From an uncultured cyanobacterium (GTDB lineage Bacteria > Cyanobacteriota > Cyanobacteriia > Pseudanabaenales > Pseudanabaenaceae): DNA of 64,000 nt. The DNA is taken from NCBI GenBank assembly GCA_963703315.1, contig OY969811.1, positions 1,600,001 to 1,664,000 of the forward strand. Reading direction: 5' to 3'. The stretch's first letter is position 1. Each line of letters opens with the position of its first letter. The notes under the pieces are model-generated. The model was not told the DNA's origin, made no database searches, and was given only the letters and a program-made list of their open reading frames with translations. Both the position numbers and the translations under genes were made by a program. Below are positions 34,716 to 64,000 of the stretch, in pieces.

Positions 34716-34785
34716 ATGGTCTCTCGTTCAAGTAATCCAAAAGCTAAAAATGGCGTTGCCATTTTTAGCTTTTGAAATCCTTACT

Positions 34786-37397: not shown

Positions 37398-37527
37398 GAT
37401 GTTCATCGCTAAATCGGTAAGTACCTCAATCGAATTGAAACATCGCTTACGGACATAATCACGCCGTTTGTAAGTTCTGTGGCATAGTCATTTAAAATTG
37501 CTAACAAATGACGGTTAACTACTTCTC

Positions 37528-38594
37528 GGCACTGGTCATTGAATTAGTGGTATGAGAAAATAGAGGCAGAGGAAAGGAGAAAGCTATGGAATGCCCCCAC
37601 TGCCAGAGCCAAAAGATCATCAAAAATGGCAAACATCATCACCAAGATGGCAAAGCTATCCAGAACTATTTGTGTAAAGGATGCGGCAAGAGATTTAGTG
37701 AAAGGACAGGAACGCCAATGTCAAGGCTGAGAACACCAGCGAGTGTCGTATCCTTAGCGCTAAAGATGAGGAGTGAAGGGATGGGAATCAGAGCCAGTGG
37801 CAGAGTCCTCGAAAAATCCCATGTCAGCATCATGAGATGGGAGCAAAAATTGGCAACCCAGTCACAGCAATGGAGTCCAGATGCCCCAGCAGGAGGAGAT
37901 ATAACAGTCGAGGGAGATGAGGTTTACACTCGCGTAGGCGAGAACCTTCCCCCCCTCAAAGTCAAAAGGATGGACAGTGACATTCATTGAGCGTAAGAGT
38001 CGCTATTGGATTGAGGCAAGGGTAGGACTCAAAACCACTGAATTATTTACTAAAGCAACCAAAACAGCATGGCAATGGGCAAAGGCAAGTCAATACATCC
38101 GATGGTTTACCGATGGCGAAAGACGCTATGCCCAACAACTATGGCAAATGGCAAGTGTGCGCCTCAAATCCACTGAAGTAAGTCGTGAGTATAGACATCG
38201 CAAGGTATGGCGACATGGCTTAGAAGTTGCGATCAAAATTAAAAGTTCACAGGGAAATCGTCGGGTCGAATGGCTCAAACCTGAGCATCCCTATACGGCT
38301 ATTAGCGACAAGTGTGACATTCATGCCAATCACAATGAAGCTAACAACAGTGCTTTGAGAAGGAGATGTAGTGCTTATCGTCGCAGACAAAACCTATATG
38401 CGAAGAATACCGAAGGATTACAACGAGCAGTCACTGTGCAAAGATTAGTTCACAACTGGGTGAGACCTCATGTGGGCTTAGGGAAGAATAAGACTCCAGT
38501 TATGGCGATCGGGCTATATCATCGACCGCTTTCCATGCTGGAGTTGCTTTCACTACGAGGCTTTCACTCCCTCACGATTTAACTGACCAGTGCC
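37528..38594 (+). mobile_element. IS1-family insertion sequence
   Basis: Terminal IRs GGCACTGGTCA...TGACCAGTGCC; 8-bp target duplication TACTTCTC at 37520-37527 and 38595-38602. Confidence 0.93.
37586..38582 (+). CDS. IS1 transposase in two frames (InsA-like Zn ribbon/HTH plus DDE domain) joined at a C7 run
   Basis: CPHCQ..CKGCG, EGMGIRASGR, VEGDEVYT, frame change at CTTCCCCCCCTCA (~37946-37958), WFTDGE, NHNEANNSALRRR. Confidence 0.88.
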
Positions 38595-38842
38595 TACTTC
38601 TCGGCTTACATTTCCTAAACGAAATAAAATAACGCTGGGTAGGCTTTCACCACTAATTGCTAATAGCTGGGCAAAGTCTAAATCTACGGTCAGTAATATT
38701 CGTTCTTCTTGGCGAGCTTTTTCTAAAATATTGGGATCTGTCATCTTTTCTAGATTCTCTTCAATCAGGTGGATTGCGTCATAACCTTGTTCTCTCAAGA
38801 GTGCAATTGTGCGGGGAGAGATGCCCATATCGCCTAAGAATT

Positions 38843-39091
38843 TCATACTGCTTGAGGGATTTGCCAAAAGATGACTCGCTCTTGGGTGAGCCAAGCGGCA
38901 TATCTAAGCGCTTGCTGGATGTCTTCTAGTTCGAGATAGGGATAGTCTTCGATGATTTCTGCTGTTGATAAGCCGTTGGCGATGAGGTTGATGACTACGG
39001 ATACGGGTATCCGCATTCCGCGAATGCAAGCTTGACCTGCCATGATTTTTGGGTCAAAGGTTATGCGATCTAGTCCTGCTATTGCTTTCAT
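38843..39091 (-). CDS. DUF433 antitoxin
   Basis: RITFDPKIMAGQACIRGMRIPV...YPYLELEDIQQAL.YAA. Confidence 0.92.
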   Translation of the reverse strand: MKAIAGLDRITFDPKIMAGQACIRGMRIPVSVVINLIANGLSTAEIIEDYPYLELEDIQQALRYAAWLTQERVIFWQIPQAV

Positions 39092-39103
39092 TGTTTTTGC
39101 CTC

Positions 39104-39262
39104 TTATTCTATTTTAATGGCTGTGTATTCTTGTTCTGTTAGTTCAAATTCTGGGTCGATCACTTTTACTTCGTCAGAGGTGAGTTGATAGAGTTTGTAA
39201 ACTAAGCGATCGCATTCTTTTTCTAGTTCGCTCGTATCAGCATGGCGATCGCCTTTTTTAGC
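39104..39262 (-). repeat. RM-gene 3'-end repeat, copy B
   Basis: Encodes AKKGDRHADTSELEKECDRLVYKLYQLTSDEVKVIDPEFELTEQEYTAIKIE*, followed by GAGG and the DUF433 ATG. Confidence 0.9.
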
Positions 39263-39291
39263 GGGTGAGAATTTTTATTATCCAGTTTAAA

Positions 39292-39628
39292 TTAACTTTG
39301 TTGTTGATATTCTGTGATGATATCCCTAATCTCGTCAGCTTCAATGTCTGACTGTTCAGACTTAGGATAAATAGTTAGTAAAACTATTCCTGTTAATGTT
39401 TTGAGATAATAAATTAGGCGATAACCTCCACTTTTTCCTTTCTTAATATCACTATTTTTAACTCTTAGTTTAAACACAGGATAGCCAATCCCTGATATTT
39501 GATTCTCCTTGCTCTAGTTGGTTGATAACTGGTTGGAGGTCTTGACGAATGTTTCGATATTTTTTGGCAAGAGTGCGTATATTTTTCTGAAAAGCTGGTG
39601 AGGCTTCAATTTGGATTGGGTTAGTCAT
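39292..39628 (-). pseudogene. RelE/HigB-like toxin, frameshifted
   Basis: MTNPIQIEASPAFQKNIRTLAKKYRNIRQDLQPVINQLEQGE, frame change near 39500, then QISGIGYPVFKLRVKNSDIKKGKSGGYRLIYY. Confidence 0.82.
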
Positions 39629-39854
39629 TTTCTAGCCCTTCCCAAAGTTGAGATAGTGGAATTGTTTGACCTGTCATCGCTTCGTGCCATGCTTGGCGAA
39701 AGTCAGATATTATTTCTTCTTTAGTGAAGTCTTCTGGTGATTCTGGAATCAGTACGATGATTTCTACTCGACTATTTTTGTTTTTCAGTAGTGGACTGTC
39801 TAGGGTTATTTGCCCTTGTTCGTTGATGGTTGCCATTGCTTTAAGTGCTTTCAT
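39621..39854 (-). CDS. RelN-like antitoxin
   Basis: ATINEQGQITLDSPL...RVEIIVLIPE...FRQAWHEAMTGQTIPLSQLW; overlaps the toxin start. Confidence 0.82.
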   Translation of the reverse strand: MKALKAMATINEQGQITLDSPLLKNKNSRVEIIVLIPESPEDFTKEEIISDFRQAWHEAMTGQTIPLSQLWEGLEND

Positions 39855-39878
39855 GTTTTTATTCCTTAGTTAGAAGTT

Positions 39879-40025
39879 TTACTTTGTTTTAATTACTGTG
39901 TATTCTTGTTCTGTTAGTTCAAATTCTGGGTCGATCGCTTTTACTTCGTCAATAGGTGAGTTGATAGAGTTTGTAAACTAAATTATCGATCACCTTTTCT
40001 AGTTCGCTCGTATCAGCATTAGGAT
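39879..40025 (-). repeat. RM-gene 3'-end repeat, copy C
   Basis: Encodes NPNADTSELEKVIDNLVYKLYQLT / DEVKAIDPEFELTEQEYTVIKTK* with a 1-nt frame slip. Confidence 0.88.
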
Positions 40026-40031
40026 TAATGT

Positions 40032-40397
40032 TTACCTCTTTCTGATTCTAAATTTATTCTGATCGACAATTACAGTTGCACCAATTATCTCTGGCAAATT
40101 AACTTGACTAATAAATTGCTCTAATACTTGCCGAATTTCTATAGCGATCGCTTCAAAGGGAAATCTTAAAATAATTAAACCTCAATGTGTATTTGGTGGA
40201 TAGTTTTTAATGTTTGACCATCCGAGATCGCGGCTAATGATTATTCTTTGTTCTGTTTGGGCGAATATAAATATTTCAGGATCTTTTGTGCCGCTAAGTC
40301 CAGATGTTTTGATGTGAATGGCATCATGCCCTTTGTCGTTGAGTAAAGTTTCTAAAATAAGTGGACAATCTTCATCGATTAGAAAACGTAATTTCAA
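40032..40397 (-). pseudogene. DUF5615 PIN-like toxin with an in-frame nonsense codon
   Basis: RFLIDEDCP...ISRDLGW...PPNTH-TGA-GLIILRFP...VIVDQNKFRIRKR*; the frame continues past TGA at 40182-40184. Confidence 0.85.
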
Positions 40398-40636
40398 CTT
40401 ACTTTCTCCATTGAATAGACTGTTTCATAGTTTAAAAGCTCGGAAAAGTAAGCAAGTGAGGCAAGAATCTGTTCGTGGGTAACTGCATATTCTTGAATTA
40501 CTTCGTCATAGGTCATGCCACCAGCGAGGGAGCCGATAATTATGGCGATCGGAAGACGAGTTCCTTTTAGTACGGGTTTACCATGTTGGATTTCGTTGTC
40601 AATGGTAATTACATCAGTTAGTATACTTTTTTTCAT
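40394..40636 (-). CDS. DUF433 antitoxin
   Basis: ITIDNEIQHGKPVLKGTRLPI...GMTYDEVIQEY. Confidence 0.9.
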   Translation of the reverse strand: MKKSILTDVITIDNEIQHGKPVLKGTRLPIAIIIGSLAGGMTYDEVIQEYAVTHEQILASLAYFSELLNYETVYSMEKVS

Positions 40637-40699
40637 AATCTATATTCCTTATAAAAGCTAAACATTTTTACAAAAATCTACACCTTATCTTTTCCCTTG

Positions 40700-40816
40700 T
40701 CACCTCTCTCCTTCTACTATTTTAATCTCTTCTTCTGTCAATCCGTAAAGTTGATAGACTAAACGATCGCACTCCTTTTCTAATTCGCTCGTATCAGCAT
40801 GGCGATCGCCTTTTTT
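40700..40816 (-). repeat. RM-gene 3'-end repeat, copy D (alternative terminus)
   Basis: Encodes KKGDRHADTSELEKECDRLVYQLYGLTEEEIKIVEGER*. Confidence 0.88.
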
Positions 40817-40825
40817 AGTAGTTTG

Positions 40826-41098
40826 TCATGGTTTAAGCAAATTGACTGGATAAGCTCGAACTGCTTCGTCTACTGTCGCGATCGCCATATTATTTTGTAT
40901 AGCTTGACAAATAAGCATTCTGTCAAAGGGATCACGATGTAAAGATGGGAGTTTGGCTAGTTGAGTTACACTGGCTTGATCGAGGTCAAGATTAAGAATT
41001 TGATGGCGATCGCAGTGTTTAGGGAAATATATTTCAGGTGATTCTGGTAATGGTAATTTGCCTAGCTGATATTTAACAATGGCTTCCCAAGTTGACAC
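40826..41098 (-). pseudogene. PIN/VapC toxin lacking its N-terminus
   Basis: STWEAIVK...HRDPFDRMLICQA..IATVD present, but the N-terminal LLDT segment is absent; fused out of frame to the upstream antitoxin. Confidence 0.8.
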
Positions 41099-41343
41099 AA
41101 CATTTCTTCTGGTAGCGGTGCATCAAAGTCTTCAGGGACGACAAATTCTCCAACACATAAACCAAATGGGCGTTGTTTTTTATTCTTTGTTGTAACTGCT
41201 TTGGATGAGTTTTGATCTTTTAAGGTTTCTGTTGTCTGGATGTCTTCGAGTGTATCTAGGTCTTCTGCAAGAATCCGAATTAGTTTAACTTTTTCCGTTA
41301 CAGTGAGTTTTCGGGCGGCGGGTAGTAGTTCGGCGAGTGTCAT
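41062..41343 (-). CDS. Antitoxin-like protein with DUF2281-type C-terminus (probably chimeric)
   Basis: MTLAELLPAARKLTVTEKVKLIRILAEDL + RPFGLCVGEFVVPEDFDAPLPEE. Confidence 0.7.
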   Translation of the reverse strand: MTLAELLPAARKLTVTEKVKLIRILAEDLDTLEDIQTTETLKDQNSSKAVTTKNKKQRPFGLCVGEFVVPEDFDAPLPEEMLCQLGKPLLNIS

Positions 41344-41354
41344 TGTTTTACCTC

Positions 41355-41905
41355 TTACTCTGTTTTAATTGCTATATATTCTTGTTCTGTTAGTTCAAAT
41401 TCTGGGTCGATGACAGAGGCAATCGCAGGTTCCGCAATTTGTTTATAAAAGAAATCTGTCTTCTTGCCACTCAGCCGCCCATCTTCAAAATCCTTAAACT
41501 TCTTAACTAAAGCCTTATCGCTAAAAAACAACTCCTCAAATATCTTCGCATCAAAAATAAACCACTCATAAATATTGGTCACCACCAAATGCTTAACCCC
41601 AATATTTCCATGCTTCTCCTTTTCACGCAAAAAATATAAAACCAACTGCTGCAACGCCTTAGCATTGAGATTGTCAACTTTCGGCATTTCCGCGCTATTA
41701 GTTTTAGATAGCGATCGCCGTAATAGGTCTTTTTGAGAAACTCAATCAGCAAATTTTTATTAAATTCTTCATCCTTTTTGCTGTCACAAAGCTCAAGCAT
41801 CCGCCCCAAATTAGCCTTAAACCCCTGAATATTCTCAGCATCAGGTTTGATTTTTAAGTCAGTCCTGTTTAACGCTTGCTTAGGTTCGAGCTTATTGACG
41901 ATCAT
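41355..41905 (-). pseudogene. Gutted type IIG (Eco57I-like) restriction-modification gene: N-terminal fragments fused to the extreme C-terminus (repeat copy E, 41355-41414)
   Basis: KQALNR..LKIKP...EEFNKNL..EFLKKTYY, frameshift next to HIP1 at 41711, EMP...NLNAKALQQLVLYFLRE...KHLVVTNIYEWFIFDA...TDFFYKQIA, then directly VIDPEFELTEQEYIAIKTE*. No methyltransferase motifs remain. Confidence 0.75.
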
Positions 41906-42206: not shown

Positions 42207-43244
42207 ATGGTAGCAACCAAAGAAGTCTCTTTGCCGCGCAATTGTACGTTCAGCGCAACTGACTGGCAAGCGCTTGCACCCTTCTGGTATCCCGTTGCAT
42301 TCTCCCATGAAATCACAGCCGAGAAGCCCTATGGCACGCATCTCTTAGACGAGAGATTGGTGATTTACCGAGTTTCCGATGGTACGATTATCGTTGCCAA
42401 AGATCTATGCTTGCATCGTGGCGCACCCCTGAGTTTAGGTTGGATTGAAAACGATCGCCTCGTTTGTCCTTACCACGGAGTGCAGTACGACTGCGATGCT
42501 AAATGTGTTCACATTCCCGCTCAGCCCGAAGCCACAATTCCATCAAGACTGAAGCTCAAAACCTATCCAGTGATGGAACGCTATGGATTAGTCTGGACAA
42601 GATTGATAGACAATGGTGCAGTTCCATTTCCTGAATTGGCTGAATGGGAAGACCCAGATTATATTCAGGTGTTACCCAATTCTGTAGATTTGAATGCGGC
42701 AGCAGGTCGGCAAGTGGAAGGATTCTTAGATGTCAGTCACTTTGCTTTTATTCATGCTAAATCTTTTGGAGAGCAGGATAATCCTGAAGTTCCAGATTAT
42801 ACCATTGAGCAAACTACCTCTGGATTCAGAGCCGACTATATCAGTACTGTTAGTAACTATGCTCATGGTATGAAGCATTTAGCTCCACCCGATTTTTTGT
42901 GGAGAAGGCTATTTGAGTTGTTTGTTCCATTTACTGCCAAGTTGACTGTTTTCTTCCCTCATGGCAAACTGCACGTTCTCAACGCCGCTTCGCCGATGTC
43001 GGCACGGAAAACGCGATTGTTTGTACCGATTTGTCGAAACTTTGATAAAGATGCGCCTCTACAAGACACGCTCGATTTTAATGATCAGGTATTTTATGAA
43101 GACAAGGCGATCGTTGAGGAGCAATGGCCAGAGGATTTACCTATATGTCTCGCTGACGAGGTACATATTGCTGGAGATAAAAGCTCGATCACTTTCCGTA
43201 AAAAGCTGGCAGCGATCGGCTTAGGCAAATCTTTCACTTCGTGA
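42207..43244 (+). CDS. Rieske non-heme iron oxygenase (VanA/methylxanthine demethylase-like)
   Basis: CLHRG...CPYHG Rieske ligands; EGFLDVSHFAFIH iron motif; EDK. Confidence 0.9.
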   Translation: MVATKEVSLPRNCTFSATDWQALAPFWYPVAFSHEITAEKPYGTHLLDERLVIYRVSDGTIIVAKDLCLHRGAPLSLGWIENDRLVCPYHGVQYDCDAKCVHIPAQPEATIPSRLKLKTYPVMERYGLVWTRLIDNGAVPFPELAEWEDPDYIQVLPNSVDLNAAAGRQVEGFLDVSHFAFIHAKSFGEQDNPEVPDYTIEQTTSGFRADYISTVSNYAHGMKHLAPPDFLWRRLFELFVPFTAKLTVFFPHGKLHVLNAASPMSARKTRLFVPICRNFDKDAPLQDTLDFNDQVFYEDKAIVEEQWPEDLPICLADEVHIAGDKSSITFRKKLAAIGLGKSFTS

Positions 43245-43247
43245 TTA

Positions 43248-43350
43248 ATACCAATTCACGAAAGTGTAACAACACTTTCGTGAATTAAAAATCAAACCCA
43301 GTAAGGGTTTTTAAATCTAAAAATAGCGTAGCCATTTTTAGATTTGGTAT
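43248..43350 (+). repeat. 103-bp MITE-like element, copy 3
   Basis: ATACCAATTCACGAAAGTGT...TTTGGTAT; an isolated left-end remnant also lies at about 44087-44099. Confidence 0.82.
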
Positions 43351-53131: not shown

Positions 53132-54316
53132 TTACGATCGCGTGAGACTGACTGTTTCTGGATCGTATTGAAATTGGTTAAGCGTTCCTTCTTTAATTTT
53201 TTCAACCACCGCTTCAATTATTTCTAGGGGAACAAGAAACCATTCCCTTGGTTGTACTGGTATGCCAAAGCGATCGGGTAGAGCTAATTCCAATCGAGCG
53301 CTGTCGAAAAACTTGTGCAGCAAAGCCTCAAGTTTTTTGGGATTAATATTTGCTAATTTGAAGGTGACGACAATTTCCACATCGGCGAGTAGGTAGGTGG
53401 GATCTTTTTTGGCGTTAGCAATTCGCTTTTTCACGTCGCCAGATGTCACGCCGATCTTGTGGATGACAGAACGATTTTCGATAATAAAGGGATGATCGCA
53501 TTGGCTTCTCAGCACATAAATGTAACCCGTTGGCAAGTCATCTGCGGCTTCAGTACTGAGAAAAAGTGGTCCCAGATCGGGAGTGGTGATGCGGCGACTG
53601 GTTTTGTCTTTATTTAGAGCGCGTTGCAGCGATCGCAATAATAAATCACTCTCAGTACCATTGTCATAAACAACTCGTAAGCGAGAGTTAGGCAGACCAT
53701 AATCACTGGTAAACCATTCTCCCATTTCGGCAACGATGACTTTCTGCCCATCAAGGATAAACAGATCGTTGAGGTTAATGGTGGCATTGTCTTGATATTT
53801 GATGGTTTGCCGATCGCCTGTTTTTAACTGGTGCTGCACTTGATCAAAGATTGGCTTGAACTGCTCGAAGTCTTGGCAGGGATTACGTTGGGCGATTTCT
53901 TCGGCGGCTTTAATTTCTTGGCGCGATCGCACATAGGTAAGACGGGTAATATCTTGGGCTGAATCGGTTTCAACTTTAAGAGCAGCAAGTAGCTCTTCAT
54001 CTGAGATCTTTTCAGCAGTTAGCTCGACATCTTTATCAGCATCCAATAGACCGTGAGAGTCTAGCGGTTTCAGGATGGCACGACATTCTTCCGATTCCCG
54101 CAGGCGATCAAGCCTCACGGCATAGATCCGCTCGAAGATATCGCAGTCTTCCCTGTGCTGGGGCAGTCTGCCCTGTTCTTCCACAAATCGCTCGATTTCC
54201 TCAAAGCCTGCGACAATGCGTTCCTCTGTAGCCGACCGACCATTATTTTGGGGAGACTGAGCAAAGCCGTCAAGTTCTGACCTTAGTTCATCGAGATCTA
54301 TATCACTATTACTCAT
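53132..54316 (-). CDS. YeeC-like GIY-YIG (T5orf172) nuclease
   Basis: GYIYVLRS...HKIGVT...RIANA..DPTYL...LEALLHKFF...PREWF. Start set at MSNSDID, overlapping the helicase stop. Confidence 0.88.
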   Translation of the reverse strand: MSNSDIDLDELRSELDGFAQSPQNNGRSATEERIVAGFEEIERFVEEQGRLPQHREDCDIFERIYAVRLDRLRESEECRAILKPLDSHGLLDADKDVELTAEKISDEELLAALKVETDSAQDITRLTYVRSRQEIKAAEEIAQRNPCQDFEQFKPIFDQVQHQLKTGDRQTIKYQDNATINLNDLFILDGQKVIVAEMGEWFTSDYGLPNSRLRVVYDNGTESDLLLRSLQRALNKDKTSRRITTPDLGPLFLSTEAADDLPTGYIYVLRSQCDHPFIIENRSVIHKIGVTSGDVKKRIANAKKDPTYLLADVEIVVTFKLANINPKKLEALLHKFFDSARLELALPDRFGIPVQPREWFLVPLEIIEAVVEKIKEGTLNQFQYDPETVSLTRS

Positions 54317-56447
54317 AACGTCCTTCATCCTTAAAGCGAACAAATGCGGCAGCACCTTCAGCCATACGCTTTTCCCAAGCATCGGGTGAATTAGCCGATG
54401 GTAGCCTTCCTCTTTCCTTTTTGAATTTGAAAGCTCGTACAGCAAGTTCTTTGGCTTCTTCGGGAGTCAGACTCGTGCGCTTGGCGGCAATTACTTCAGC
54501 GATCTGTTTGAGTCGTTCTTCGGTCATCGACTTGGCGAGGATGGCGTAGGCTTCGCCGAAGGGATTGATGCGATCGATTAAATCAATATCTAGTTCAGTG
54601 ACGGAGAAGGCGAACTGACGCACACCGTCAATCAAAGCTGTGTTTGGAGATGGCTCTTGATCTGGTTGATCTAATTGACGCTCTGATTGATCGAGAGAAT
54701 CGGTGGATTCAGGGAAAGCGATCGCACTGGGATTAAGCGTGTAGCCGTTACCTAACTCATTTAGGGATTTCTTGGCTTGTTGAATGACGTTTAGAGCGGC
54801 GATCGCGTGTTGACGCACTGCTTCTTGATCCTGTTCTTCGAGGATGGGAAACTTCTCTTTGACGATTTTGCCCATGCGGACTTGGGTTAATTCTTCGGGA
54901 ACCAACTCCTCATCGAATAGACCACGCTCGATTGCCTGTTTATCTTGGACAAAGGCTGTCACCAGTTCTGTTAAATCTTCGCGACAAATCCGTTTTGCTT
55001 CTTTACTTTTGGGTTCTGCTAGTCCCTTAATTTCTAATTGAATCTGACCCGTCTCTGGATTAATCCCCACATTACATTTATTGGGATCGTAGCCCTCTGC
55101 ACCATAGTCATAGCCTTCTGTCGGTTGATTGTCAGGGCGTTTGGGTTTGAACTCGAAGCGCGGCGCAAGAACTTGTTCCATTAATAGACTGGCGGCGATC
55201 GCTTTCAAGGTGTCATTTACGGCTTCGGTGACGGCTTCTTCACTGGCATCGGGTTCGGCGATGAGATTGGTGAAACGGGCGCGATATTTATTGGGTGCGT
55301 CACGAGTGGCGCGTCCGATGATCTGGATAATTTCGGTGAGGCTGGAGCGATAGCCAATGGTGAGAGCGTGTTCGCACCAAATCCAATCGAAGCCTTCCTT
55401 TGCCATGCCGAGGGCGATGATGATATCCACATGAGCGCGGTTATGTTTTTGGGTGGGATCTTTGAGCGCCGATGTCACTTTGTCCCGTTTAGCGGGATCA
55501 TCATCGACTAAATCCGCAATTTTTAAGATTGTCCCATCGGCAGTTTTGACTAGTTGAAAGCCTGTCTCTGGATCGGCTCCTTGCCATTCTCCTAATTCTT
55601 CAATAATATGTTCCACTTCGCGAATTTTGTCCTTAGTGCTTTCGCGAGAGTTGACATTGGGAATATGCAGAATCGTTTTCTCTTTGGGATTGAGAACCTG
55701 CATAATTTCATCGGCATAGCTACCCGCATAAAAGTAATAGCCTATGTCCAGTTGCTTGAGATATTGGTAGCCGTTGAGTTGTTCGTAATAGGTGTATTTA
55801 ACGGGTTCAAATTTGGCTTCGTCTTCGGGGTGCAGTACGGCGATCGCATCACCACGAAAGTAAGAGCCAGTCATGGCGACAATGTGGGTTTTGTCCCTTG
55901 CCATCAGTTGACCGACATATTCACCTAGTTTGTTATTGGGATTTGCGGAAACATGGTGAAATTCATCAATGGCGATCAAGCGCTGATCAAATGCCTCAAT
56001 GCCAAATTTATCAACGGCAAAGCGGAAGGTGGCATGGGTACAGATCAAAATCTTGACTGCACTATCGAGAAATTTCTGCACCGATTCGACTTTGCCGCCA
56101 TCGTTGCCAGCCGCATCGCAAAGGTTCCATTTGGGTTCTACTTGCCAATCTGCCCAAAAGCCATACTGAGTAAGTGTCTCGTTGTGAAAACTAGCACCAA
56201 TGGATTTTTCAGGAACGACGACGATCGCCTGTTTGAGTCCCTGATTTTCGAGTTTGTCGAGGGCGATAAACATCAGGGCGCGACTTTTGCCAGAGGCGGG
56301 GGGAGATTTGATTAATAAATATTGTTCGCCGCGTTTTTGGTAAGCGCGTTCTTGCATGGGGCGCATACCGAGGGCGTTGGGTTGGGTGGATGTGCCGTTG
56401 TGGGCGTAGGTGACGGAGACGGAGGGGATGGCTTTGGGTTTACTCAT
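54309..56447 (-). CDS. YeeB-like SF2 (DEAD/DEAH) helicase
   Basis: SPPASGKS, DEFHH, MTGSYFRGD, GMAKEGFDW, QIIGRATRD. Confidence 0.9.
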   Translation of the reverse strand: MSKPKAIPSVSVTYAHNGTSTQPNALGMRPMQERAYQKRGEQYLLIKSPPASGKSRALMFIALDKLENQGLKQAIVVVPEKSIGASFHNETLTQYGFWADWQVEPKWNLCDAAGNDGGKVESVQKFLDSAVKILICTHATFRFAVDKFGIEAFDQRLIAIDEFHHVSANPNNKLGEYVGQLMARDKTHIVAMTGSYFRGDAIAVLHPEDEAKFEPVKYTYYEQLNGYQYLKQLDIGYYFYAGSYADEIMQVLNPKEKTILHIPNVNSRESTKDKIREVEHIIEELGEWQGADPETGFQLVKTADGTILKIADLVDDDPAKRDKVTSALKDPTQKHNRAHVDIIIALGMAKEGFDWIWCEHALTIGYRSSLTEIIQIIGRATRDAPNKYRARFTNLIAEPDASEEAVTEAVNDTLKAIAASLLMEQVLAPRFEFKPKRPDNQPTEGYDYGAEGYDPNKCNVGINPETGQIQLEIKGLAEPKSKEAKRICREDLTELVTAFVQDKQAIERGLFDEELVPEELTQVRMGKIVKEKFPILEEQDQEAVRQHAIAALNVIQQAKKSLNELGNGYTLNPSAIAFPESTDSLDQSERQLDQPDQEPSPNTALIDGVRQFAFSVTELDIDLIDRINPFGEAYAILAKSMTEERLKQIAEVIAAKRTSLTPEEAKELAVRAFKFKKERGRLPSANSPDAWEKRMAEGAAAFVRFKDEGRYE

Positions 56448-56459: not shown

Positions 56460-56867
56460 CTAGATCTGGTTGAGGATTTCTGTTGGGGAGTAAACAGGGA
56501 GGCTGCTACCGATGAAGTCTTTACGATCGCGGATTACGATCGCATCAAGCTGGGCAATAGTAGCACAGGCAAGTTGAATACTGTCTTCAAAGTCTTTCAG
56601 TCCAAGAGTAAGAGCCGTTGTAACAGTTTGGTGATCGACGGCACAAAATTGGAGTCCTATCAAGAGTTGATTAATGGCGGCAATAGCAACTTCACGACCT
56701 TCAGTTTTACGAATGATGTAGAAAATATTGGTGATGGTGGTTGCCGCAATATACCCTGCCAAATTACCTCTTTCAATTTGTTCAAAGAGGGCAATCGCAC
56801 TTGTGGCAAATGGTTCTCTTTCTAGGAGTAGATCGAGAACAACGTTGGTATCGATGAGAATTTTCAT
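56460..56867 (-). CDS. PIN-domain toxin (PIN_3-like)
   Basis: ILIDTNVVLDLL, DFEDSIQ, IRDRKDF. Confidence 0.88.
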   Translation of the reverse strand: MKILIDTNVVLDLLLEREPFATSAIALFEQIERGNLAGYIAATTITNIFYIIRKTEGREVAIAAINQLLIGLQFCAVDHQTVTTALTLGLKDFEDSIQLACATIAQLDAIVIRDRKDFIGSSLPVYSPTEILNQI

Positions 56868-56875
56868 AGACAGGC

Positions 56876-57118
56876 TTACAGGTATTTTTGGGTGAGATAG
56901 TCTGTATATTCGGATTGCAGATCTTGATCGCTAGGTGTTGAGTCAGCACGTTTGGCAATACCAAGAAGTCCAGTGAGTGTACCAAGGGGAATCACTTGGG
57001 ATGGATTGTGCTGTTTTTGGTGGAGAGACTCAGCGAAGTAAAAAATTTGGTTGATTTGGTCTTCTGGAAGGGTTTGGATAAGTTGATAGAGCTTTTCAGT
57101 AGTTGTCATGATCTTCAT
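56876..57118 (-). CDS. Putative antitoxin (DUF2281-like N-terminus)
   Basis: Small gene directly upstream of the PIN gene; LYQLIQTLPEDQINQIFYFAESL, LTGLLGIAK, YLTQKY. Confidence 0.72.
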   Translation of the reverse strand: MKIMTTTEKLYQLIQTLPEDQINQIFYFAESLHQKQHNPSQVIPLGTLTGLLGIAKRADSTPSDQDLQSEYTDYLTQKYL

Positions 57119-57145
57119 GGGGTAGGGATGTTTTATATTGACTAA

Positions 57146-57988
57146 TTAATTATCCAAAATATCGGGATTTTTAATAGATTTTTTCTCGTCTGAGGCAAGC
57201 CGCCGCTCAACTTTTTTGACATCTTCAGCAGGGGGCAAAGATTCTGGACGAATCCCCCTTTCTAGTAATGTCTTGCGAACTGCTTGATTATTTGTGATGT
57301 GTTCGCTAGAAATTTCTGGCTCTGTCGTCATTTGGTTTTGCTGTGCATTAAAGATCGTAATTTCGGCAGCAAAATCTTTAGCTTTGAGGATAATTGTGGG
57401 TGCAAAGTCTGCAAGAGGTTTGCTATCAGGTACTTTCCACTGAGCTTTCATGGCTTGTGTCGATTTTCCAAATAGGGCGGTGTCTCCTTTACTGCGAATT
57501 GAGGCAAAATTGCGATCGCTACCTGTTTGTTCGTAAATGACTCTCGAAAGTTCTTTTTCGGTTTCTGAAAGTTTTTTTCTAGCAGAAACTCGCTCAACTT
57601 CTAGCAAGCGTTGCTCAATTAACTCGGCTTTTCTGGTTTGAACTGCAAAATATGTCTGAGCAAAGGCAATTTCTTGTTTGCGCGGATCGCCATTTTGGGC
57701 AATCAGGTAACAGGCATAGCGGGTAAGCATGATGTCATCGACCTCTCTTTGACTGCCAGAGCCAAGATCGACCATTTTCCCGACGTTAGCAAAATGGTCA
57801 GCCACGTCATGATCTGAAACTTCGCAAGCCGTTTTTGCTTTGGAAACAACATTTAAAAAGTTATCCCATTTTGTATAGCCTAAAAGATGTTGGAGGTCAC
57901 GGGCAAGCCAATATTCGATGCCATTTTCAGTCTGTTGAGCGTGGGCTTCAAAGTTGTCGGTTAGAGAGTTGATCGTGTCTTTTTGCAT
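57146..57988 (-). CDS. dinD: DNA-damage-inducible protein D (BRO-N domain)
   Basis: EYWLARDLQHLLGY.KWDNF, LTRYACYLIAQNGDPRK, AQTYFAVQTR, PESLPPAEDVKK. Confidence 0.9.
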   Translation of the reverse strand: MQKDTINSLTDNFEAHAQQTENGIEYWLARDLQHLLGYTKWDNFLNVVSKAKTACEVSDHDVADHFANVGKMVDLGSGSQREVDDIMLTRYACYLIAQNGDPRKQEIAFAQTYFAVQTRKAELIEQRLLEVERVSARKKLSETEKELSRVIYEQTGSDRNFASIRSKGDTALFGKSTQAMKAQWKVPDSKPLADFAPTIILKAKDFAAEITIFNAQQNQMTTEPEISSEHITNNQAVRKTLLERGIRPESLPPAEDVKKVERRLASDEKKSIKNPDILDN

Positions 57989-58136
57989 GGTCTTGTTTAA
58001 ATTGTGTTTTTATTTTAGGTTTAGTATATTTTTTGTAAATCTGGCTGTCTGGTGATTTTTCTAATCTTTCTGTGTCGCTGATAGCTTGCGATCGCGCTCA
58101 AGTACATCTCAAATAGTATAAACATAATTAATTTGG

Positions 58137-58205
58137 TAGGGGCAGAGCATTCCTGCAACTATTTATTTGGATCACTAGGTTTTATATACAGGAATGCTCT
58201 GCCCT
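58137..58205. repeat. GTAG-class REP-like inverted repeat
   Basis: GTAGGGGCAGAGCATTCCTG ... CAGGAATGCTCTGCCC. Confidence 0.7.
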
Positions 58206-58275
58206 GAATTTAGCGCGATCGCTGATTAATTCTCAACTGCGGAAAGGGTAATAATCCGCACGATCATCTACAAGA

Positions 58276-58374
58276 CCCTCACCCCTAGCCCCTCTCCCAA
58301 AAGGGGAGAGGGGAACAAGAAATTAGTCTTGCTCCCCCTCTCCCTTAATGGGAGAGGGGGCTGGGGGGTGAGGG
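58276..58374 (+). repeat. 99-bp double-hairpin repeat (CCCTCACCCC...GGGGTGAGGG), intergenic copy
   Basis: Same length and family as the three intragenic copies at 60416-61099, in opposite orientation. Confidence 0.88.
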
Positions 58375-58380
58375 CGATAT

Positions 58381-61300
58381 TTATGACTTGGGTTTTCGTT
58401 TGCTAGAAGGTTTCCCTGTCTCTTGTTTACTGGTCATTTTGCTGTACATCTCAAACAACTTCTCTAATCGCTCGGTGTCATTTTTAAACCGCCGCCCGAT
58501 GTAAATCCGTTCAATTATTTCGTCATTTCTCTCGTGGGCTTGTCTGACTAATGGGAATTCGCTGTCCATTCTGTCGCGATCGTACATATCGGCAATGGTG
58601 GCAGGAAAGTAATGCTCTCTGGCTAACAATATGTCTTCGGCGCAACGGGTGAGGTCGGTTTTGTTTTGTTCGGTGAGGGTGGGGACGGGGAAGGTGTTCC
58701 AGCCGAGGGTGTTGGAGTAGCGAAAGCTGGTTCCCATTCTTCCACAGACGGTGGCGATCCAGACTAAATGTAATCGTGAGGCGATCAGTGCCATGTTCCA
58801 AAGTGGATCATCGTAAAGAGCAAAAGCAAGATTGCTAACAATAGTTCCTGCTGGACAATAGCCTACAGGCAGATATTCACGACTCTCCGATGAAACACTT
58901 GGTACAATTAGTAATGTTTCAGTTCCAGTTTGACGGACTTCATCAAATCGATGTGGATATTTTGCTCCTTCACGAGTTGCGAGCTTTGAACTAGATAAGC
59001 GCATCATACGAACAGCTTCGATACGTTTATTAATTGCTGGAATCTCATTTGCTTTTGTAGCAGCTTCGTCAGAAATCCATAAACAAAATCTCTGTAAACC
59101 TCTTATAAATTCGACAGATCCCAGAAAAGAACGAACAAGAAGTAACTTTTGATTCATGGAAAGGTTGATTCCTTTTAATTCTTCTGATGATAAAAGTAGA
59201 TTTCCACCATCAACAGGCTTACTGCCAAAACTCATTTCAGAGATATCACTTAATGGCTTTGCTGATTTTTCAACGATTACATTTACTCCACTTACCAAAT
59301 AAGCATTAATATTTATCGCTTCCTTAGCTATTGTTTGTCCTTTATCTTCAACAGAAAATAAACATTTTGCCCTATCCCATTGCTGAGAAATTCCCACCAT
59401 CACCACTATCACCCCAGCGTTATGAGTTGCTAGATTTGCCCATTTGAAAGAAGTATGAGCAAAAGCAATTTCATGACCAGTTGCAAAAATTAGTGACCAG
59501 AGAATTGATACTTGTTGCCCCTGACAAATAGAATTAGTCGAAACAAACGCCGCCGCCGATTGGGTTTGGGTTCCATAATCAGCAGCCTTCATAAACCAAC
59601 CCGCCACATAATCTAGCGACTTCCATAACTTAGTACGTCCATCAAAAATTTGTTTTAAATCATCCTTCTGTTCCTTCGATTGCCAAGTAGAACCCAAATA
59701 AGGCGGATTTCCACAAATATAAGTTTCTCCTCCCTCATTTTTAAAATCAATCTCAGCCTCATCCCGCGTCTCTTGCCACAAATCCAAATCCTCACGCTGC
59801 ACAGTTACACCCTTACCCGTTGGCGGACACAAACTCAACCAATCCAACCGCAACGCATTCCCACAAGTAATCCAATTATCACTCTTTAACGGCAAAAACT
59901 CCGCCAGCGCCAACATTTGCCCCCGATACAACACATCACACTGATACTCCGCAATAATCAACGCCAACCGCGCCACCTCCACCGCAAAATGCCGAATTTC
60001 AATCCCCCGAAAATTGGTTAACGGAATATCTGACTTGCGATCGCCCTCACCCCGCCGCCGATTGATTTCCGCCTCAAGCGATCGCATCTCCTTATAAGCA
60101 ATCACCAAAAAATTCCCCGACCCACAAGCAGGATCAAACACCCGAATCTTCGCCATCCGTAGCCGCAAATTCAACAACTTCCGCCCATTGTCTCCCGCCG
60201 CATCTAACTGAGCGCGAAGATCATCCAAAAACAACGGATTCAGCACCTTCAAGATATTCGGCACACTCGTATAGTGCATCCCCAACGTGCCGCGCTCCTC
60301 ATCATCAGCGATCGCCTGAATCATCGACCCAAAAATGTCAGGATTAATCCGCTTCCAGTCCAAATTGCCAATATGCAACAAATACGATCGCGCAATCTTA
60401 CTAAAACGGGGTATACCCTCACCCCCAGCCCCTCTCCCAGAACGGGAGAGGGGAGTAAGAGATTTTTCTTGTCCCCCTTCTCCCTCCTTGGGAGAAGGGG
60501 CTAGGGGATGAGGGCGATTTACAAACTTAAGACCCTCACCCCCAGCCCCTCTCCCAGTAGGGGAGAGGGGAGTAAGAGGAGATTCTTGTCCCCCTTCTCC
60601 CTCCTTGGGAGAAGGGGTTAGGGGATGAGGGTTAAACCCCTGCCGTACAAGAGTTAATGCTTGATCTAAATTTGTCTCGACTAATTCACTAGATACACGA
60701 ACCACCCTCAAGCCCAAGGATTCAAGTAGCTCTTGTCGTTGACGATCTGCTGCTTGCTGTGAGTCATGCACACCGCCATCAACTTCAACAATTAGTCGTT
60801 CTGCCCCACAGAAAAAATCAACAATGAACGCTCCGATTGACTGTTGTCGCCTGAATTTGCGTCCTTCTAGCTTGCGTCCGCGCAGAGCTTGCCAAAGAAT
60901 ATTTTCACTGGGAGTAGGTTCTTTGCGAAATTGACGAGCCACCTCAGTCATTTTTTGCTTAAGTTCAGGAGGAATTGACCAGTACTCGCCTGAATCAATA
61001 CCCTCACCCCCAGCCCCTCGCCCAAAGGGGGAGAGGGGAGTAAGAGATTTTTCTTGTTCCCTCTCTCCCTTCTTGGGAGAGGGGGCTAGGGGGTGAGGGC
61101 GATCCACAGGATGAGAGCTAAACAACCCTCCATTCACATAAGGAAAAACATTTGCCCAATTGCGAATCCCTAACGCCTCGCGCTCCTGTAATGGTGTCGC
61201 CATCGCCCGAAACAACTCCGCCAAAATCTCATGGGTATTTTCACCATCACTCATCTGCGCGATCGCCTGTGTAAACAACCCATCGCCACTAAAAATATTC

Positions 61301-61869
61301 GTATCTTCCGCAAAAAAACAGAAAATCAACCGCGCCATAAAATGATTAAAATCTTCACGGCGATCGCCCTGATCCCAATCAGGATTATCCTTCAACAACT
61401 CCACATAAAGCCGATTTAGCCGCCCCGTCGCCTTAATATCAAAGGCATTTTCCCGAATTTGCTTAACCGTCGTAATCCCTGCCAACGGCAAGAAAAAGCC
61501 AAAATGATCCGCAAATTTTGGGTATGCACAGGCGATCGTCTCCCCATCCACCAGATTTTCTGCCTCAAAGCTCTCGCCATCCGTCGCCAGAATAAACTTT
61601 GCCTTGTGCTTAGTCGTGGCTGAACTCTCCCGCAAAGCCGTCAAAGTTGCCGATACATCCCCCTCAGCGCAAACCTTCAGATGAATATTATTCCGTTGCA
61701 GCACTCCACCCACATCAGACTGATTCGAGCTACCCTGCTCACTCCTGAGCCGCTTGAGCGTAGTCGCCTTATTGCCAAAAGCCTCTAAAAACGCAAAAGG
61801 AAACTCCGATCCATCAAAAGGTGCTTCCGCCAACCGAGAAACCGCTTCTTCAATTTCGACTGCATTCAT
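58381..61869 (-). CDS. YeeA/MmeI-like (type IIL) N6-adenine DNA methyltransferase with an in-frame DUF559 insertion
   Basis: FMARLIFCFFAEDT, FPYVNGGLF, INPDIFGSMIQ, GMHYTS, motif I FDPACGSGNF, motif IV GNPPY, AFVSTNSICQG, C-terminal TRD. Confidence 0.92.
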   Translation of the reverse strand: MNAVEIEEAVSRLAEAPFDGSEFPFAFLEAFGNKATTLKRLRSEQGSSNQSDVGGVLQRNNIHLKVCAEGDVSATLTALRESSATTKHKAKFILATDGESFEAENLVDGETIACAYPKFADHFGFFLPLAGITTVKQIRENAFDIKATGRLNRLYVELLKDNPDWDQGDRREDFNHFMARLIFCFFAEDTNIFSGDGLFTQAIAQMSDGENTHEILAELFRAMATPLQEREALGIRNWANVFPYVNGGLFSSHPVDRPHPLAPSPKKGEREQEKSLTPLSPFGRGAGGEGIDSGEYWSIPPELKQKMTEVARQFRKEPTPSENILWQALRGRKLEGRKFRRQQSIGAFIVDFFCGAERLIVEVDGGVHDSQQAADRQRQELLESLGLRVVRVSSELVETNLDQALTLVRQGFNPHPLTPSPKEGEGGQESPLTPLSPTGRGAGGEGLKFVNRPHPLAPSPKEGEGGQEKSLTPLSRSGRGAGGEGIPRFSKIARSYLLHIGNLDWKRINPDIFGSMIQAIADDEERGTLGMHYTSVPNILKVLNPLFLDDLRAQLDAAGDNGRKLLNLRLRMAKIRVFDPACGSGNFLVIAYKEMRSLEAEINRRRGEGDRKSDIPLTNFRGIEIRHFAVEVARLALIIAEYQCDVLYRGQMLALAEFLPLKSDNWITCGNALRLDWLSLCPPTGKGVTVQREDLDLWQETRDEAEIDFKNEGGETYICGNPPYLGSTWQSKEQKDDLKQIFDGRTKLWKSLDYVAGWFMKAADYGTQTQSAAAFVSTNSICQGQQVSILWSLIFATGHEIAFAHTSFKWANLATHNAGVIVVMVGISQQWDRAKCLFSVEDKGQTIAKEAININAYLVSGVNVIVEKSAKPLSDISEMSFGSKPVDGGNLLLSSEELKGINLSMNQKLLLVRSFLGSVEFIRGLQRFCLWISDEAATKANEIPAINKRIEAVRMMRLSSSKLATREGAKYPHRFDEVRQTGTETLLIVPSVSSESREYLPVGYCPAGTIVSNLAFALYDDPLWNMALIASRLHLVWIATVCGRMGTSFRYSNTLGWNTFPVPTLTEQNKTDLTRCAEDILLAREHYFPATIADMYDRDRMDSEFPLVRQAHERNDEIIERIYIGRRFKNDTERLEKLFEMYSKMTSKQETGKPSSKRKPKS
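60416..61099 (-). mobile_element. In-frame insert: 99-bp repeat, DUF559 endonuclease, two 99-bp repeats
   Basis: Repeats at 61001-61099, 60533-60631 and 60416-60514 flank ARQFRKEPTPSENILWQALR...KFRRQ..IG.FIVDF.C...VEVDGGVH. Total 684 bp = 228 codons. Confidence 0.8.
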
Positions 61870-61972
61870 ACGCTAACCATCTTCAGGTTTTATTCCTTAA
61901 GCAAATCTTGCCTCGCTATGTTACCAAAAAATTCATGTTAAAATCGAGCCAATGTATCTCTAGAGAGCTACT

Positions 61973-62160
61973 ATGCAAACCACCGAAGCGCTAGTTAAAA
62001 CTTCTGACTTCTCCCCCGTTCCCACAAATCCAAGCGGAATCCCCCGACTGGTTTTATGTTCCCAATGTCTCGCCGCTTCTTGATGGTGAATATCGCCGTT
62101 CATACGTGCTATGGAAAGAGTTTGTCGCACCCTTACTTAATTGCGATTGAATTTGTGTAG
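61973..62160 (+). pseudogene. Uma2-family endonuclease remnant
   Basis: An alternative frame reads ESPDWFYVPNVSPLLDGEYRRSYVLWKEFVAPL; frameshifted and truncated. Confidence 0.65.
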
Positions 62161-62270: not shown

Positions 62271-62810
62271 ATGTCCCAAGTCGAAATGGTTTTGAATATG
62301 TTGCGTCCAGTCGTGGCTTCGATGTCTGCGGCTGATAAGTCTGATTTACTTGCAAAAGTGAGCCAATTACTAGAGGCAAGTGACAGTAAACCTACTGCTT
62401 CTGGACAAAGCCAAAGCAACACCTTGAGCGGGATTAATTTTAGCGGTGGTGCTAATAATGCGCTCAACTTTGCGCCTGTGCAGAATCAAGGCGGCAATGT
62501 CAATGTCGCGTCTAACTTTAATCAGAGTTATGTGGTCAATCCAGAGGTCAAAAAGGTTCTAGAAGACCTCAGCCAACTCAAGGCAAGCATTGCTGAGAGT
62601 CAAGAAATTAATCCTTTACTAAAGGAACCTGTCAAACTGGAAGTCCAGAAACTGGAAGAGGAATTGCAGAAACCTGAACCAAATCCCACTTTTGTAGAAA
62701 GTACGGTTGCTACGATCAAGAAAGGATTAGAAGGAGTGATTACTTTGGCAGAACCCACTGTGAAAATCGCCTCTTTTGTAGCCAAGCTATACGGATTTCC
62801 AGTTCCATAG
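62271..62810 (+). CDS. Hypothetical protein: short N-terminal helix, N/Q/G-rich motif, C-terminal amphipathic helical domain
   Basis: 179-aa ORF; central SQSNTLSGINFSGGANNALNFAPVQNQGGNVNVASNFNQS. Confidence 0.8.
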   Translation: MSQVEMVLNMLRPVVASMSAADKSDLLAKVSQLLEASDSKPTASGQSQSNTLSGINFSGGANNALNFAPVQNQGGNVNVASNFNQSYVVNPEVKKVLEDLSQLKASIAESQEINPLLKEPVKLEVQKLEEELQKPEPNPTFVESTVATIKKGLEGVITLAEPTVKIASFVAKLYGFPVP

Positions 62811-62819
62811 CATTCATCT

Positions 62820-62848
62820 AAAAAAGCGCGGCTTCGCCGCGCTTTTTT
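62820..62848. terminator. Hairpin with A/T tails (GCTTCGC apex) between the two genes
   Basis: AAAAAAGCGCGGC-TTC-GCCGCGCTTTTTT. Confidence 0.6.
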
Positions 62849-62875
62849 AATTTATCTATTCTATTTAATAAATCA

Positions 62876-64000
62876 ATGACTGAAAGCAAAGACACTTATA
62901 ACGTCTCTCAGAGCCAAGAAAATGTCCTTCAGGATATTAATATTCAAGGCAGCAGCAATATTATTACCTTTGCGCCCACTCAAAATACGGTTATTGAAAC
63001 CCAAGTCATTCAGATTTCCGTCCAAAAGGTGACGCAGCAACAACTGATTAAAGCATCTCCCTACAAAGGTTTAAATCGTTTTAATGCCGCCGATCGCGAT
63101 CGCTTTTATGGACGCGATAAATTAATTAGAAGGATCTTAGAAGCGATTAATGCCAGTGGCTTAACCCTTGTCACAGGCGCATCGGGAAGCGGTAAGTCTT
63201 CCGTAATTCGTGCAGGCGTAATTCCTGAACTCAAGCAGTCTTTGTCGAGTCAGGCAATTAAAGATTTCATTTTCACACCTAGCCAAGATCCCTTTGAATC
63301 GCTTTATCGGTGCTTATTGAGTGAAGAGAAGGATTATCAGTTTAGTGAAAGTGATGCTCAAGTTGTTTTGACCAAAAAAGCTGATGCGATCACACAGGTA
63401 ATCGATCGCCTCAAGGAAAAGGATGAGCGCTGGTTATGGTTTATCGATCAGTTTGAAGAATTATTCACCAACTGCGGTGATGAGAGCATCAGGCAGAATT
63501 TTATTGATGGCATTGTCAAAATCGTGAAGTCTGGCAATGGCTCGGTACGGATTATTTTAGGGATGCGGGCAGATTTTCTGGAGCAGTTTAGCTTCTATCC
63601 TGCTTTAGGAACGATTTTGGATAAGGATAATATTCATCTGGTAACGGAGATGCACCCTGATGAACTACGGCAAGCGATCGAGCAGCCCGCAGCCAAACAT
63701 GGCGTGGTGTTTGAAACAGGGCTAGTTGAACAAATCATTCAGGATGTGCAAGGACAGAGGGGATATTTGCCTTTGTTGCAATACAGCCTTAATCTGTTGT
63801 GGGAAACGGAATGTAAAACCCAAGCTGCCGATGGTCGTGCGGAAATCGAAAATCGGGTTCTCAATATTTCCACCTATAATCTATTGGAAGGTGTTAGAGG
63901 TGCTTTACAGACTCGCGTTGACAAGCTTTATCGGAATTTATCTTCAGACCAGCGATCGCTTACCAAACAAATATTTTTAAAATTAGTCAATATTGTCGAT
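62876..64000 (+). CDS. STAND NTPase (nSTAND1-like), 3' end outside the window
   Basis: Not in the ORF track (no stop in window). Manual translation: MTESKDTYNV...SPYKGL..F...DRDRFYGRD, Walker A GASGSGKSS, Walker B FIDQFEELFT, MRADF, AIEQPA, GYLPLLQYSL..LW, GGVRGAL. Confidence 0.9.
   Translation, partial: MTESKDTYNVSQSQENVLQDINIQGSSNIITFAPTQNTVIETQVIQISVQKVTQQQLIKASPYKGLNRFNAADRDRFYGRDKLIRRILEAINASGLTLVTGASGSGKSSVIRAGVIPELKQSLSSQAIKDFIFTPSQDPFESLYRCLLSEEKDYQFSESDAQVVLTKKADAITQVIDRLKEKDERWLWFIDQFEELFTNCGDESIRQNFIDGIVKIVKSGNGSVRIILGMRADFLEQFSFYPALGTILDKDNIHLVTEMHPDELRQAIEQPAAKHGVVFETGLVEQIIQDVQGQRGYLPLLQYSLNLLWETECKTQAADGRAEIENRVLNISTYNLLEGVRGALQTRVDKLYRNLSSDQRSLTKQIFLKLVNIVD

Follow-up and report, generated by a model that had tools for sequence, protein, structure and literature searches.

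A DUF559 nuclease domain bracketed by BoxC-type palindromes and inserted in frame in a cyanobacterial DnmA/YeeA-type methyltransferase gene: a candidate selfish nuclease-repeat unit

Knowledge of BoxC repeats goes back to the 1990s. The motif, also described as PIT or TM motif, folds as an intrastrand triplex in vitro when studied with E. coli oligonucleotides; it occurs in large numbers in cyanobacteria and is associated with local instability, which has been ascribed to replication and repair (PMC4666352). In the part of that study available to us, a stable triplex was not found in vivo, no mobility gene was reported beside the motifs, and their mechanism and origin were called unanswered in 2015 (PMC4666352). 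Other palindromes do come with an enzyme or inside genes. REP/REPIN sequences are extragenic repeats accompanied by RAYTs, tyrosine transposases related to IS200/IS605 that are single-copy and apparently not self-mobile (PMC3116915), and Rickettsia palindromic elements and intragenic REPs are in-frame palindromes translated into short peptides, frequently within proteins that handle DNA (PMC3733652). Among nucleases, the EDxHD homing endonuclease I-Bth0305I is a selfish insertion into conserved genes, with empty and filled alleles (PMC3239194), and the Caulobacter DUF559 protein VsrA has been interpreted as acting in mismatch repair and shows a genetic link to a methyltransferase phenotype (PMC12907096).

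The window analysed here is a stretch of 64,000 nt from an uncultured Pseudanabaenaceae cyanobacterium (GCA_963703315.1, contig OY969811.1, positions 1,600,001-1,664,000 of the forward strand). In it, a DUF559 domain and three in-frame 99-bp palindromes lie inside a DnmA/YeeA-type methyltransferase, and they are a genuine insertion. The features are as follows.

53132..54445, minus strand: YeeC-like T5orf172 protein (host system context; ORF and domain search)
54309..56447, minus strand: YeeB-like SF2 helicase (host system context; ORF and domain search)
58276..58374, no strand assigned: repeat R4, of the same family but of a dispersed subfamily with a flipped centre, not a cassette arm; 6 bp beyond the stop codon
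58381..61869, minus strand: host gene, DnmA/YeeA-type MmeI-family N6-adenine methyltransferase, 1162 aa including the insert
60416..60514, minus strand: repeat R3, an in-frame copy of 99 bp that forms the insert's right end
60515..60532, minus strand: linker, 18 bp, which together with one repeat makes a 117-bp tandem unit of allele-dependent copy number
60533..60631, minus strand: repeat R2, 99 bp, in frame
60632..61000, minus strand: predicted nuclease domain, DUF559 (YcjD-type, Vsr fold), 123 codons
61001..61099, minus strand: repeat R1, an in-frame copy of 99 bp made of two BoxC/triplex-type arms in inverted orientation
61100..61117, minus strand: broken repeat-arm remnant and linker tail (codons SHPVDR), the true start of the foreign sequence; also in the repeat-only alleles G020 and G022

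A domain search of the host ORF gave MmeI_N, MmeI_hel, DUF559 (aa 306-408), MmeI_Mtase, TRD and C domains. The methyltransferase motifs DPACGSG (aa 579) and NPPY (aa 721) are intact, and the host was assigned as an N6-adenine enzyme because of the latter. The insert falls between MmeI residues 264 and 270, in the link between the helical spacer and the methyltransferase domain, and the first 88 host residues did not align to MmeI. In the B. subtilis DnmA cluster the methyltransferase gene is followed by genes for a YeeB helicase and a YeeC T5orf172 protein, and DnmA-type enzymes are described as lacking the endonuclease motif in the part of the source available (PMC9973331). The same arrangement was found here: an MmeI-like methyltransferase without endonuclease motif, then a helicase and a T5orf172 protein. 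A dinD gene and a toxin-antitoxin pair are interposed within this YeeA-YeeB-YeeC-type cluster.

The initial annotation had counted 228 extra codons in the methyltransferase. The insertion was confirmed but not its size: the interval from GLF to PRF spans 236 codons, compared with 6 in empty alleles, giving a net gain of 230, and the foreign sequence begins about 18 bp ahead of R1 (61100-61117). The length of 99 bp from arm to arm was borne out for each of R1-R4, as was the stop-free translation of R1-R3 (PHPL.PSPK.GE...GRGAGGEG). Folding of all four was far beyond that of shuffled sequences (z of -5.3 to -8.5; 0 of 200 shuffles as good). The double hairpin within terminal arms ascribed to every repeat was recovered as the minimum-energy fold for R2 only, whereas R1, R3 and R4 fold as one long rod. 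R4 had also been thought to lie in the opposite orientation; its gapless match to R1-R3 covers 79-86 of 99 positions in the same orientation vs. 56-57 reversed, and only the central spacer is flipped. The closest relatives of R4 are dispersed genomic copies (alignment scores of 97 and 95 vs. at most 86 for R1-R3).

The resemblance to BoxC stood as well. All eight arms of R1-R4 align along the TM motif printed in Table 1 of PMC4666352, as purine/pyrimidine-segregated hairpins with a third G-rich tract near the TM consensus, and five E. coli sites in that source are inverted pairs like the 99-bp units. According to the available part of the same source, however, the E. coli motif is always intergenic, whereas R1-R3 lie in frame inside an open reading frame and bracket a predicted nuclease (PMC4666352). 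In addition, in contrast to the lack of a mobility gene in that account, E. coli ycjD was seen here to end in or beside a BoxC-type arm, with more copies downstream. In some phylogroups, ycjD occupies the place of the eef operon (PMC12817139).

Genome-wide, BLAST defined 64 copies or fragments of the repeat, and copies occurred inside 20 ORFs of at least 200 aa. Among full-length copies, 18 of 29 measured 99 bp. Divisibility by three did not distinguish genes from spacers: it held for 16 of 21 intergenic copies and for 5 of 8 in ORFs. An exact 99-bp design that preserves the frame, as first proposed, is therefore not supported, since in-ORF lengths are no more often multiples of 3 and the intergenic copies are carried by a MITE. 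This MITE of approximately 150 bp is represented by 41 short elements, 21 of them with duplications of at least 4 bp and 10 of them holding the repeat. Four full 1131-bp IS copies in the genome encode an IS701-family transposase, and the related MITE makes 5-bp duplications. Because intergenic copies ride an IS701-type MITE, their uniform length is best read as a founder effect, and because the MITE carries many of them, the repeat could spread through the genome without need for DUF559.

These observations bear on a reading in which DUF559 parasitises the repeats: BoxC-type repeats would be spread by the MITE and by template switching, and the nuclease would home into, or between, copies of its cognate subtype. 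Besides the ride on the MITE, this reading draws on the tandem expansion of repeats in nuclease-free genes too, for example priA, and on five genomes that have no match to the DUF559 alignment, in a search that had no positive control, and still hold 7-35 type-A arms. The in-frame repeat copies, which have neither MITE ends nor duplications, speak against it.

Regarding the nuclease domain, the putative catalytic residues are intact (E322, D351, E362, D364, H368, and D375), and their spacing matches that of VsrA and Vsr (PMC12907096). The putative catalytic D, E and D were invariant in 186 of 186 DUF559 domains and the H was present in 185, a conservation that is inflated by the loci being best-scoring matches. 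The domain is under strong purifying selection, with dN/dS values of 0.02-0.08, as low as those of the methyltransferase host. An alignment-based model gave a pLDDT of about 90 for the domain and below 35 for the linkers; with a pTM of 0.40 it is reliable per domain only, and a single-sequence prediction reached a pLDDT of 38. The model's nearest folds were 3HRL (TM 0.80), then I-Bth0305I (3R3P; TM 0.76), and then Vsr. The Pro/Gly peptides encoded by the repeats had been proposed as tolerated linkers; a role as flexible linkers agrees with the model, in which they are predicted to be disordered and the nuclease is predicted to fold on its own.

With I-Bth0305I, the domain shares the catalytic fold and the D/H/D active-site pattern, in addition to the habit of selfish insertion into conserved genes that leaves empty and filled alleles (PMC3239194). 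Unlike that enzyme, the cassette has neither an N-terminal NUMOD/HTH DNA-binding region nor an intron or intein carrier, and it has structured DNA-repeat ends; the space between R1 and R2 amounts to 123 codons, nearly all of them DUF559. The likeness to Vsr and VsrA (1VSR, 3HRL) comprises the DUF559 domain, the matching active-site spacing and the frequency of methyltransferases as neighbours (PMC12907096). Here, however, the host is an adenine rather than a cytosine methyltransferase, and the domain is a repeat-bounded, dispensable insertion.

The state of the insertion site was scored in 109 homologue rows, drawn from the top matches of two protein searches and restricted to rows with 150 residues on each side: 41 were empty, 33 repeat-only, 31 DUF559-bearing, and 4 scars, the nuclease-bearing P0046 being wrongly scored as repeat-only. 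Homologues without the insert thus exist, contrary to the possibility, raised at the outset, of an ancestral domain carried by all close relatives; the unit is foreign to this site. The commonest empty-site sequence is SGGVEVPR. Short A/GGEGQV alleles hold the terminal 11 bp of the repeat and, from their sequence, are best read as excision scars. In filled alleles, 1-4 host codons are replaced and a target duplication is absent; the in-frame copies in priA show the same replacement pattern, likewise without target duplication. This evidence pertains to the methyltransferase site and priA (a comparison at menE parsed 3 of 25 loci, none of them empty), and it sets the in-frame cassette apart from DDE insertion sequences and their MITEs.

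The alleles also differ among themselves. Junction residues and insert lengths vary widely, and repeat arrays extend to as many as 619 residues in some homologues. The repeat-only alleles G020 and G022 retain the left remnant of the window allele and are mosaics of the first and last repeats, which fits deletion between direct repeats. On the host tree, occupancy is patchy: empty vs. occupied required 13 changes, of which 5 are forced by starred branches, indicating more than one event of filling or exchange at the site. Within occupied alleles 19 changes were counted, and the nuclease domain was lost repeatedly. The unit is accordingly mobile and subject to turnover at this site. No signal of co-conversion was detected in the host flanks of the methyltransferase alleles, and host and nuclease distances were modestly correlated (Mantel r 0.36, p 0.008); both results weigh against simple homing and together imply that much of the inheritance at the site is vertical.

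Inteins are likewise in-frame, endonuclease-bearing insertions in conserved proteins. The insert of the window differs from them in having no Hint domain or conserved splice residues, and it is predicted to stay in the protein. Removal of the insert from RNA or protein, restoring the host enzyme, would be favoured by the strong pairing that the flanking palindromes can form and by the presence of such inserts in essential genes. As anticipated in the initial annotation, intein motifs are absent: no intein (Hint) family matched the host ORF at E<=0.01, and the junctions vary between alleles. The suggestion of removal at the RNA level fared less well. No group I or II intron RNA was matched in Rfam up to E=1 in 58000-62000, and the scan of the same interval gave nothing above gathering score, only sub-threshold hairpin look-alikes; moreover, the reading frame is kept throughout, which would be needless if the insert were excised from RNA. 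We regard removal at either level as highly improbable.

The association between nuclease and repeat was not confined to this locus. The genome has a second YcjD-type DUF559, which likewise interrupts an MmeI-like gene in frame, but a different gene and with a different arm subtype, and all 6 genomic arms of that subtype are in that gene. Arms were found within 250 bp of DUF559 at 73 of 76 loci (72 of them from the genus), compared with 33 of 457 control windows. Among GTDB loci, the best 80 of 597 confirmed, from about 15 phyla, 67 had hairpins within 200 bp, 43 of these on both sides, and in 13 of the 80 the hairpin was absent; at phylum-level loci (n = 30) the corresponding numbers were 29 and 25, and control windows had a hairpin in 32 of 1326 cases. 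The hairpin detector, too strict in its first version, was rewritten on genus flanks and loosened on L094-L123, so the 80 GTDB loci are the only test set not tuned on its own flanks. The pairing thus recurs over phyla, and the concern that DUF559 genes might show no link to the repeat elsewhere did not materialise.

Ends are matched within loci. Left and right arms matched at 0.79 within a locus vs. 0.58 between loci at the 43 GTDB loci, and at 0.85 vs. 0.75 in the methyltransferase alleles (13 loci), although the right repeat of the same locus gave the best match in just 19 of 43 and 7 of 13 cases, respectively. The arm subtype follows the nuclease clade, with 9 changes on the nuclease tree vs. 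33.9 when shuffled, a count that rests on few columns and many near-copies. Type-B arms were located within approximately 2.5 kb of a type-B DUF559 in 73 of 79 cases in 48 genomes, the type-B set being one inherited gene. Satellite hairpins in GTDB loci were denser in the nuclease-bearing ORF than outside (0.25 vs. 0.075 per kb), and satellites resembled the arms of their own locus in 23 of 31 cases there and in 74 of 75 in the genus. Type-A arms numbered 35.9 in genomes that have a type-A cassette (n = 19) and 18.0 in those without (n = 29), kin among them not being independent.

The view that DUF559 parasitises the repeats is compatible with the tracking of subtype and with the resemblance of the fold to a homing endonuclease. 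The scarcity of type-B arms away from the nuclease and the clustering of cognate-subtype satellites in the nuclease-bearing ORF count against it, and we consider it unlikely. Less probable still, at a little under one chance in ten, is a passive history in which one ancient arm-bounded cassette was moved by host recombination and natural transformation and the activity of the nuclease is irrelevant. No dedicated enzyme is needed for expansion and deletion, which direct repeats can explain, the nuclease partly shares its descent with the host, and instability at the motif has been ascribed to replication and repair (PMC4666352). Such a history is contradicted by the near invariance of the putative catalytic residues, by dN/dS values as low as those of the host enzyme, and by a pairing that spans about 15 phyla.

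The hosts of the fused domain are many and unrelated. A Pfam scan of 54 of 61 fused ORFs, leaving out 7 look-alikes of others, assigned 20 to restriction-modification, 12 to class I tRNA synthetases, 14 to other enzymes and 8 to unnamed proteins; fused hosts included MetH, PurL and IspE-like kinases. DUF559 domains 79-85% identical to that of the window are in a different methyltransferase family. It is conceivable that the domain benefits its host, by repairing mismatches, resolving a triplex or hairpin, or adding cutting to the methyltransferase, with the repeats as by-products. The strong purifying selection on DUF559 is in line with this, as are the share of restriction-modification proteins among the scanned hosts, the genetic tie of Caulobacter VsrA to a methyltransferase phenotype (PMC12907096), the described lack of an endonuclease motif in DnmA-type enzymes (PMC9973331), and the host's unaligned first 88 residues. 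On the other hand, the domain was repeatedly lost at the site (19 changes among occupied alleles) and is also present in tRNA synthetases, MetH, PurL and IspE-like kinases, as well as in one MmeI-like gene whose own D...ExK motif appears to be retained; matched ends and subtype tracking would remain unexplained. A host benefit is therefore quite unlikely in our view, and a useful graft of a nuclease onto a YeeA-type methyltransferase, as entertained in the initial annotation, is likewise unlikely given the repeated loss and the equal presence in housekeeping enzymes.

Compared with the described families, the element departs from each in a defining property. As with REP/REPIN and RAYTs, the nuclease gene is flanked by its own palindromes, dispersed inverted doublets occur and adjoin the enzyme gene, and the repeat type co-varies with the enzyme clade (PMC3116915). 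Unlike RAYTs, DUF559 has a Vsr-type fold and occupies many unrelated sites, often fused in frame. The in-frame palindromes recall those of Rickettsia, which, in the part of the source available, have no nuclease cassette and belong to a different sequence family (PMC3733652). By analogy, the element might be pictured as a hybrid of three: a REP-RAYT pair, a homing endonuclease, and in-frame palindromes like those of Rickettsia. Repeat and domain are each known; their pairing is new relative to the literature searched, in which it was not found, and its mechanism is putative. Cyanobacterial SDR families and the supplementary flanking-gene table of PMC4666352, which may list ycjD, lie outside this comparison.

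We favour, with moderate confidence, the interpretation that the insert is a selfish, splicing-free unit of nuclease and repeats that probably acts near its own gene and is tolerated in protein loops, the nuclease activity being putative. Of the frame-preserving mobile unit originally put forward, the mobile DUF559-plus-repeat unit tolerated in frame is retained, given the empty alleles and the cross-phylum pairing, and the 99-bp frame design is abandoned. Because the insert is present, reduced or absent at the site among relatives and the pairing recurs in many phyla, DUF559 is the likely, putative driver of the repeats, and we infer that it moves them itself. The nuclease probably nicks its own arms, after which repair would copy the cassette or the arms into new sites. 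Arms would extrude from DNA that is supercoiled or briefly single-stranded, taking the form of a hairpin or an intrastrand triplex, and the nuclease, whether produced within the host protein or separately, would nick chiefly in the vicinity of its gene. Template switching, or strand invasion with an arm as template, may then seed nearby arms and move the cassette to empty alleles or other loops. Recombination between direct repeats would expand the array or remove the nuclease, so that a single repeat or a short scar is left behind. In genes, only in-frame events in tolerant loops would survive, and the insert would be retained unspliced, as a domain that folds by itself between disordered linkers.

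More broadly, and at slightly less than even chances, YcjD-type DUF559 proteins may be structure-specific nucleases, each recognising the triplex-forming ends of its own unit. They would then represent a new class of selfish element and the missing generator of BoxC, spreading by nick and repair without target duplication and near their own gene, and persisting unspliced in essential proteins, like a folded bead held by disordered linkers that the element itself encodes. If true, this would define a class of mobile elements that invade genes without splicing, explain why many tRNA synthetases and restriction enzymes are mis-annotated as "DUF559 domain-containing", and provide a natural map of insertion-tolerant loops; a nuclease reading DNA triplexes or hairpins may also be gained. 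The idea of a cognate nuclease, including the uncharacterised ycjD of E. coli K-12, makes the origin of BoxC testable. To this the locus contributes an allele series that spans four states and includes scars, together with estimates of selection, a pattern of cognate arms seeded locally, and a MITE that accounts for the 99-bp uniformity.

Variation of the insert was also seen among sequenced contigs. One is identical to the window except for one missing 117-bp unit, either a real difference or an assembly collapse, and a contig from another sequencing run spans the site with a scar-type allele.

Besides the cassette in the methyltransferase gene of the window, the source genome (G000) carried a second MmeI-like gene (L297; G000:C1:2472278-2475700) that was interrupted by another, distinct DUF559 cassette. 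The arms of this cassette were of type B, and satellite arms occurred in frame at two more sites of the ORF. Two DUF559 cassettes were found within one ORF in locus L095 and in proteins P0001 and P0004; part of the host sequence was duplicated along with the cassette in P0001. Some DUF559 copies, in genomes G160, G170, G229, and G304, contained internal stop codons, which suggests that free-standing copies decay. A weak C-terminal DUF559-like match was also present in a 1991-aa helicase of the source genome (G000:C1:1791596-1797571). No adjoining arm was detected at this helicase, and its DUF559-like part is a separate branch of the family, without repeats.

In L019 (genome G001), the type-A solo repeat at the methyltransferase site had a type-C repeat nested within it, with the reading frame kept. 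In priA of G062 (L278), a 33-bp part of the repeat was expanded in tandem and in frame to approximately six units, with no nuclease nearby. The start of Escherichia coli ycjD was overlapped by a short perfect palindrome (L052:1477-1520; in L053, upstream of ycjD), whose ends and core resembled the 99-bp unit minus both side hairpins.

An IS701-family element (1131 bp, encoding 340 aa, with 5-bp duplications) was present in the source genome at:

G000:C1:1677974, copy of the IS701-family element
G000:C1:1886411, copy of the IS701-family element
G000:C1:3011889, copy of the IS701-family element
G000:C1:4448684, copy of the IS701-family element

A family of MITEs (approximately 85–150 bp; about 41 short elements across this genome) had the same ends as this element, and carried as cargo at least four unrelated palindromes, including the BoxC pair.

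The methyltransferase gene had the following neighbours in the window:

56460-57988, dinD (matching PADLOC PDC-S13) and a DUF2281/PIN-domain toxin-antitoxin pair, between the methyltransferase and the YeeB-like helicase gene
62271-64000, a 179-aa ORF, for which no Pfam match was found, followed by an nSTAND1 NTPase extending past the window edge

Elsewhere in the window, two direct-repeat families (73–76 bp, spaced by approximately 775–780 bp) occupied positions 37322-41427, one of them containing HIP1. An additional dispersed palindromic family of approximately 105–120 bp occurred in both orientations at 20794-20913, 23755-23874, 43241-43350, and 34733-34785.
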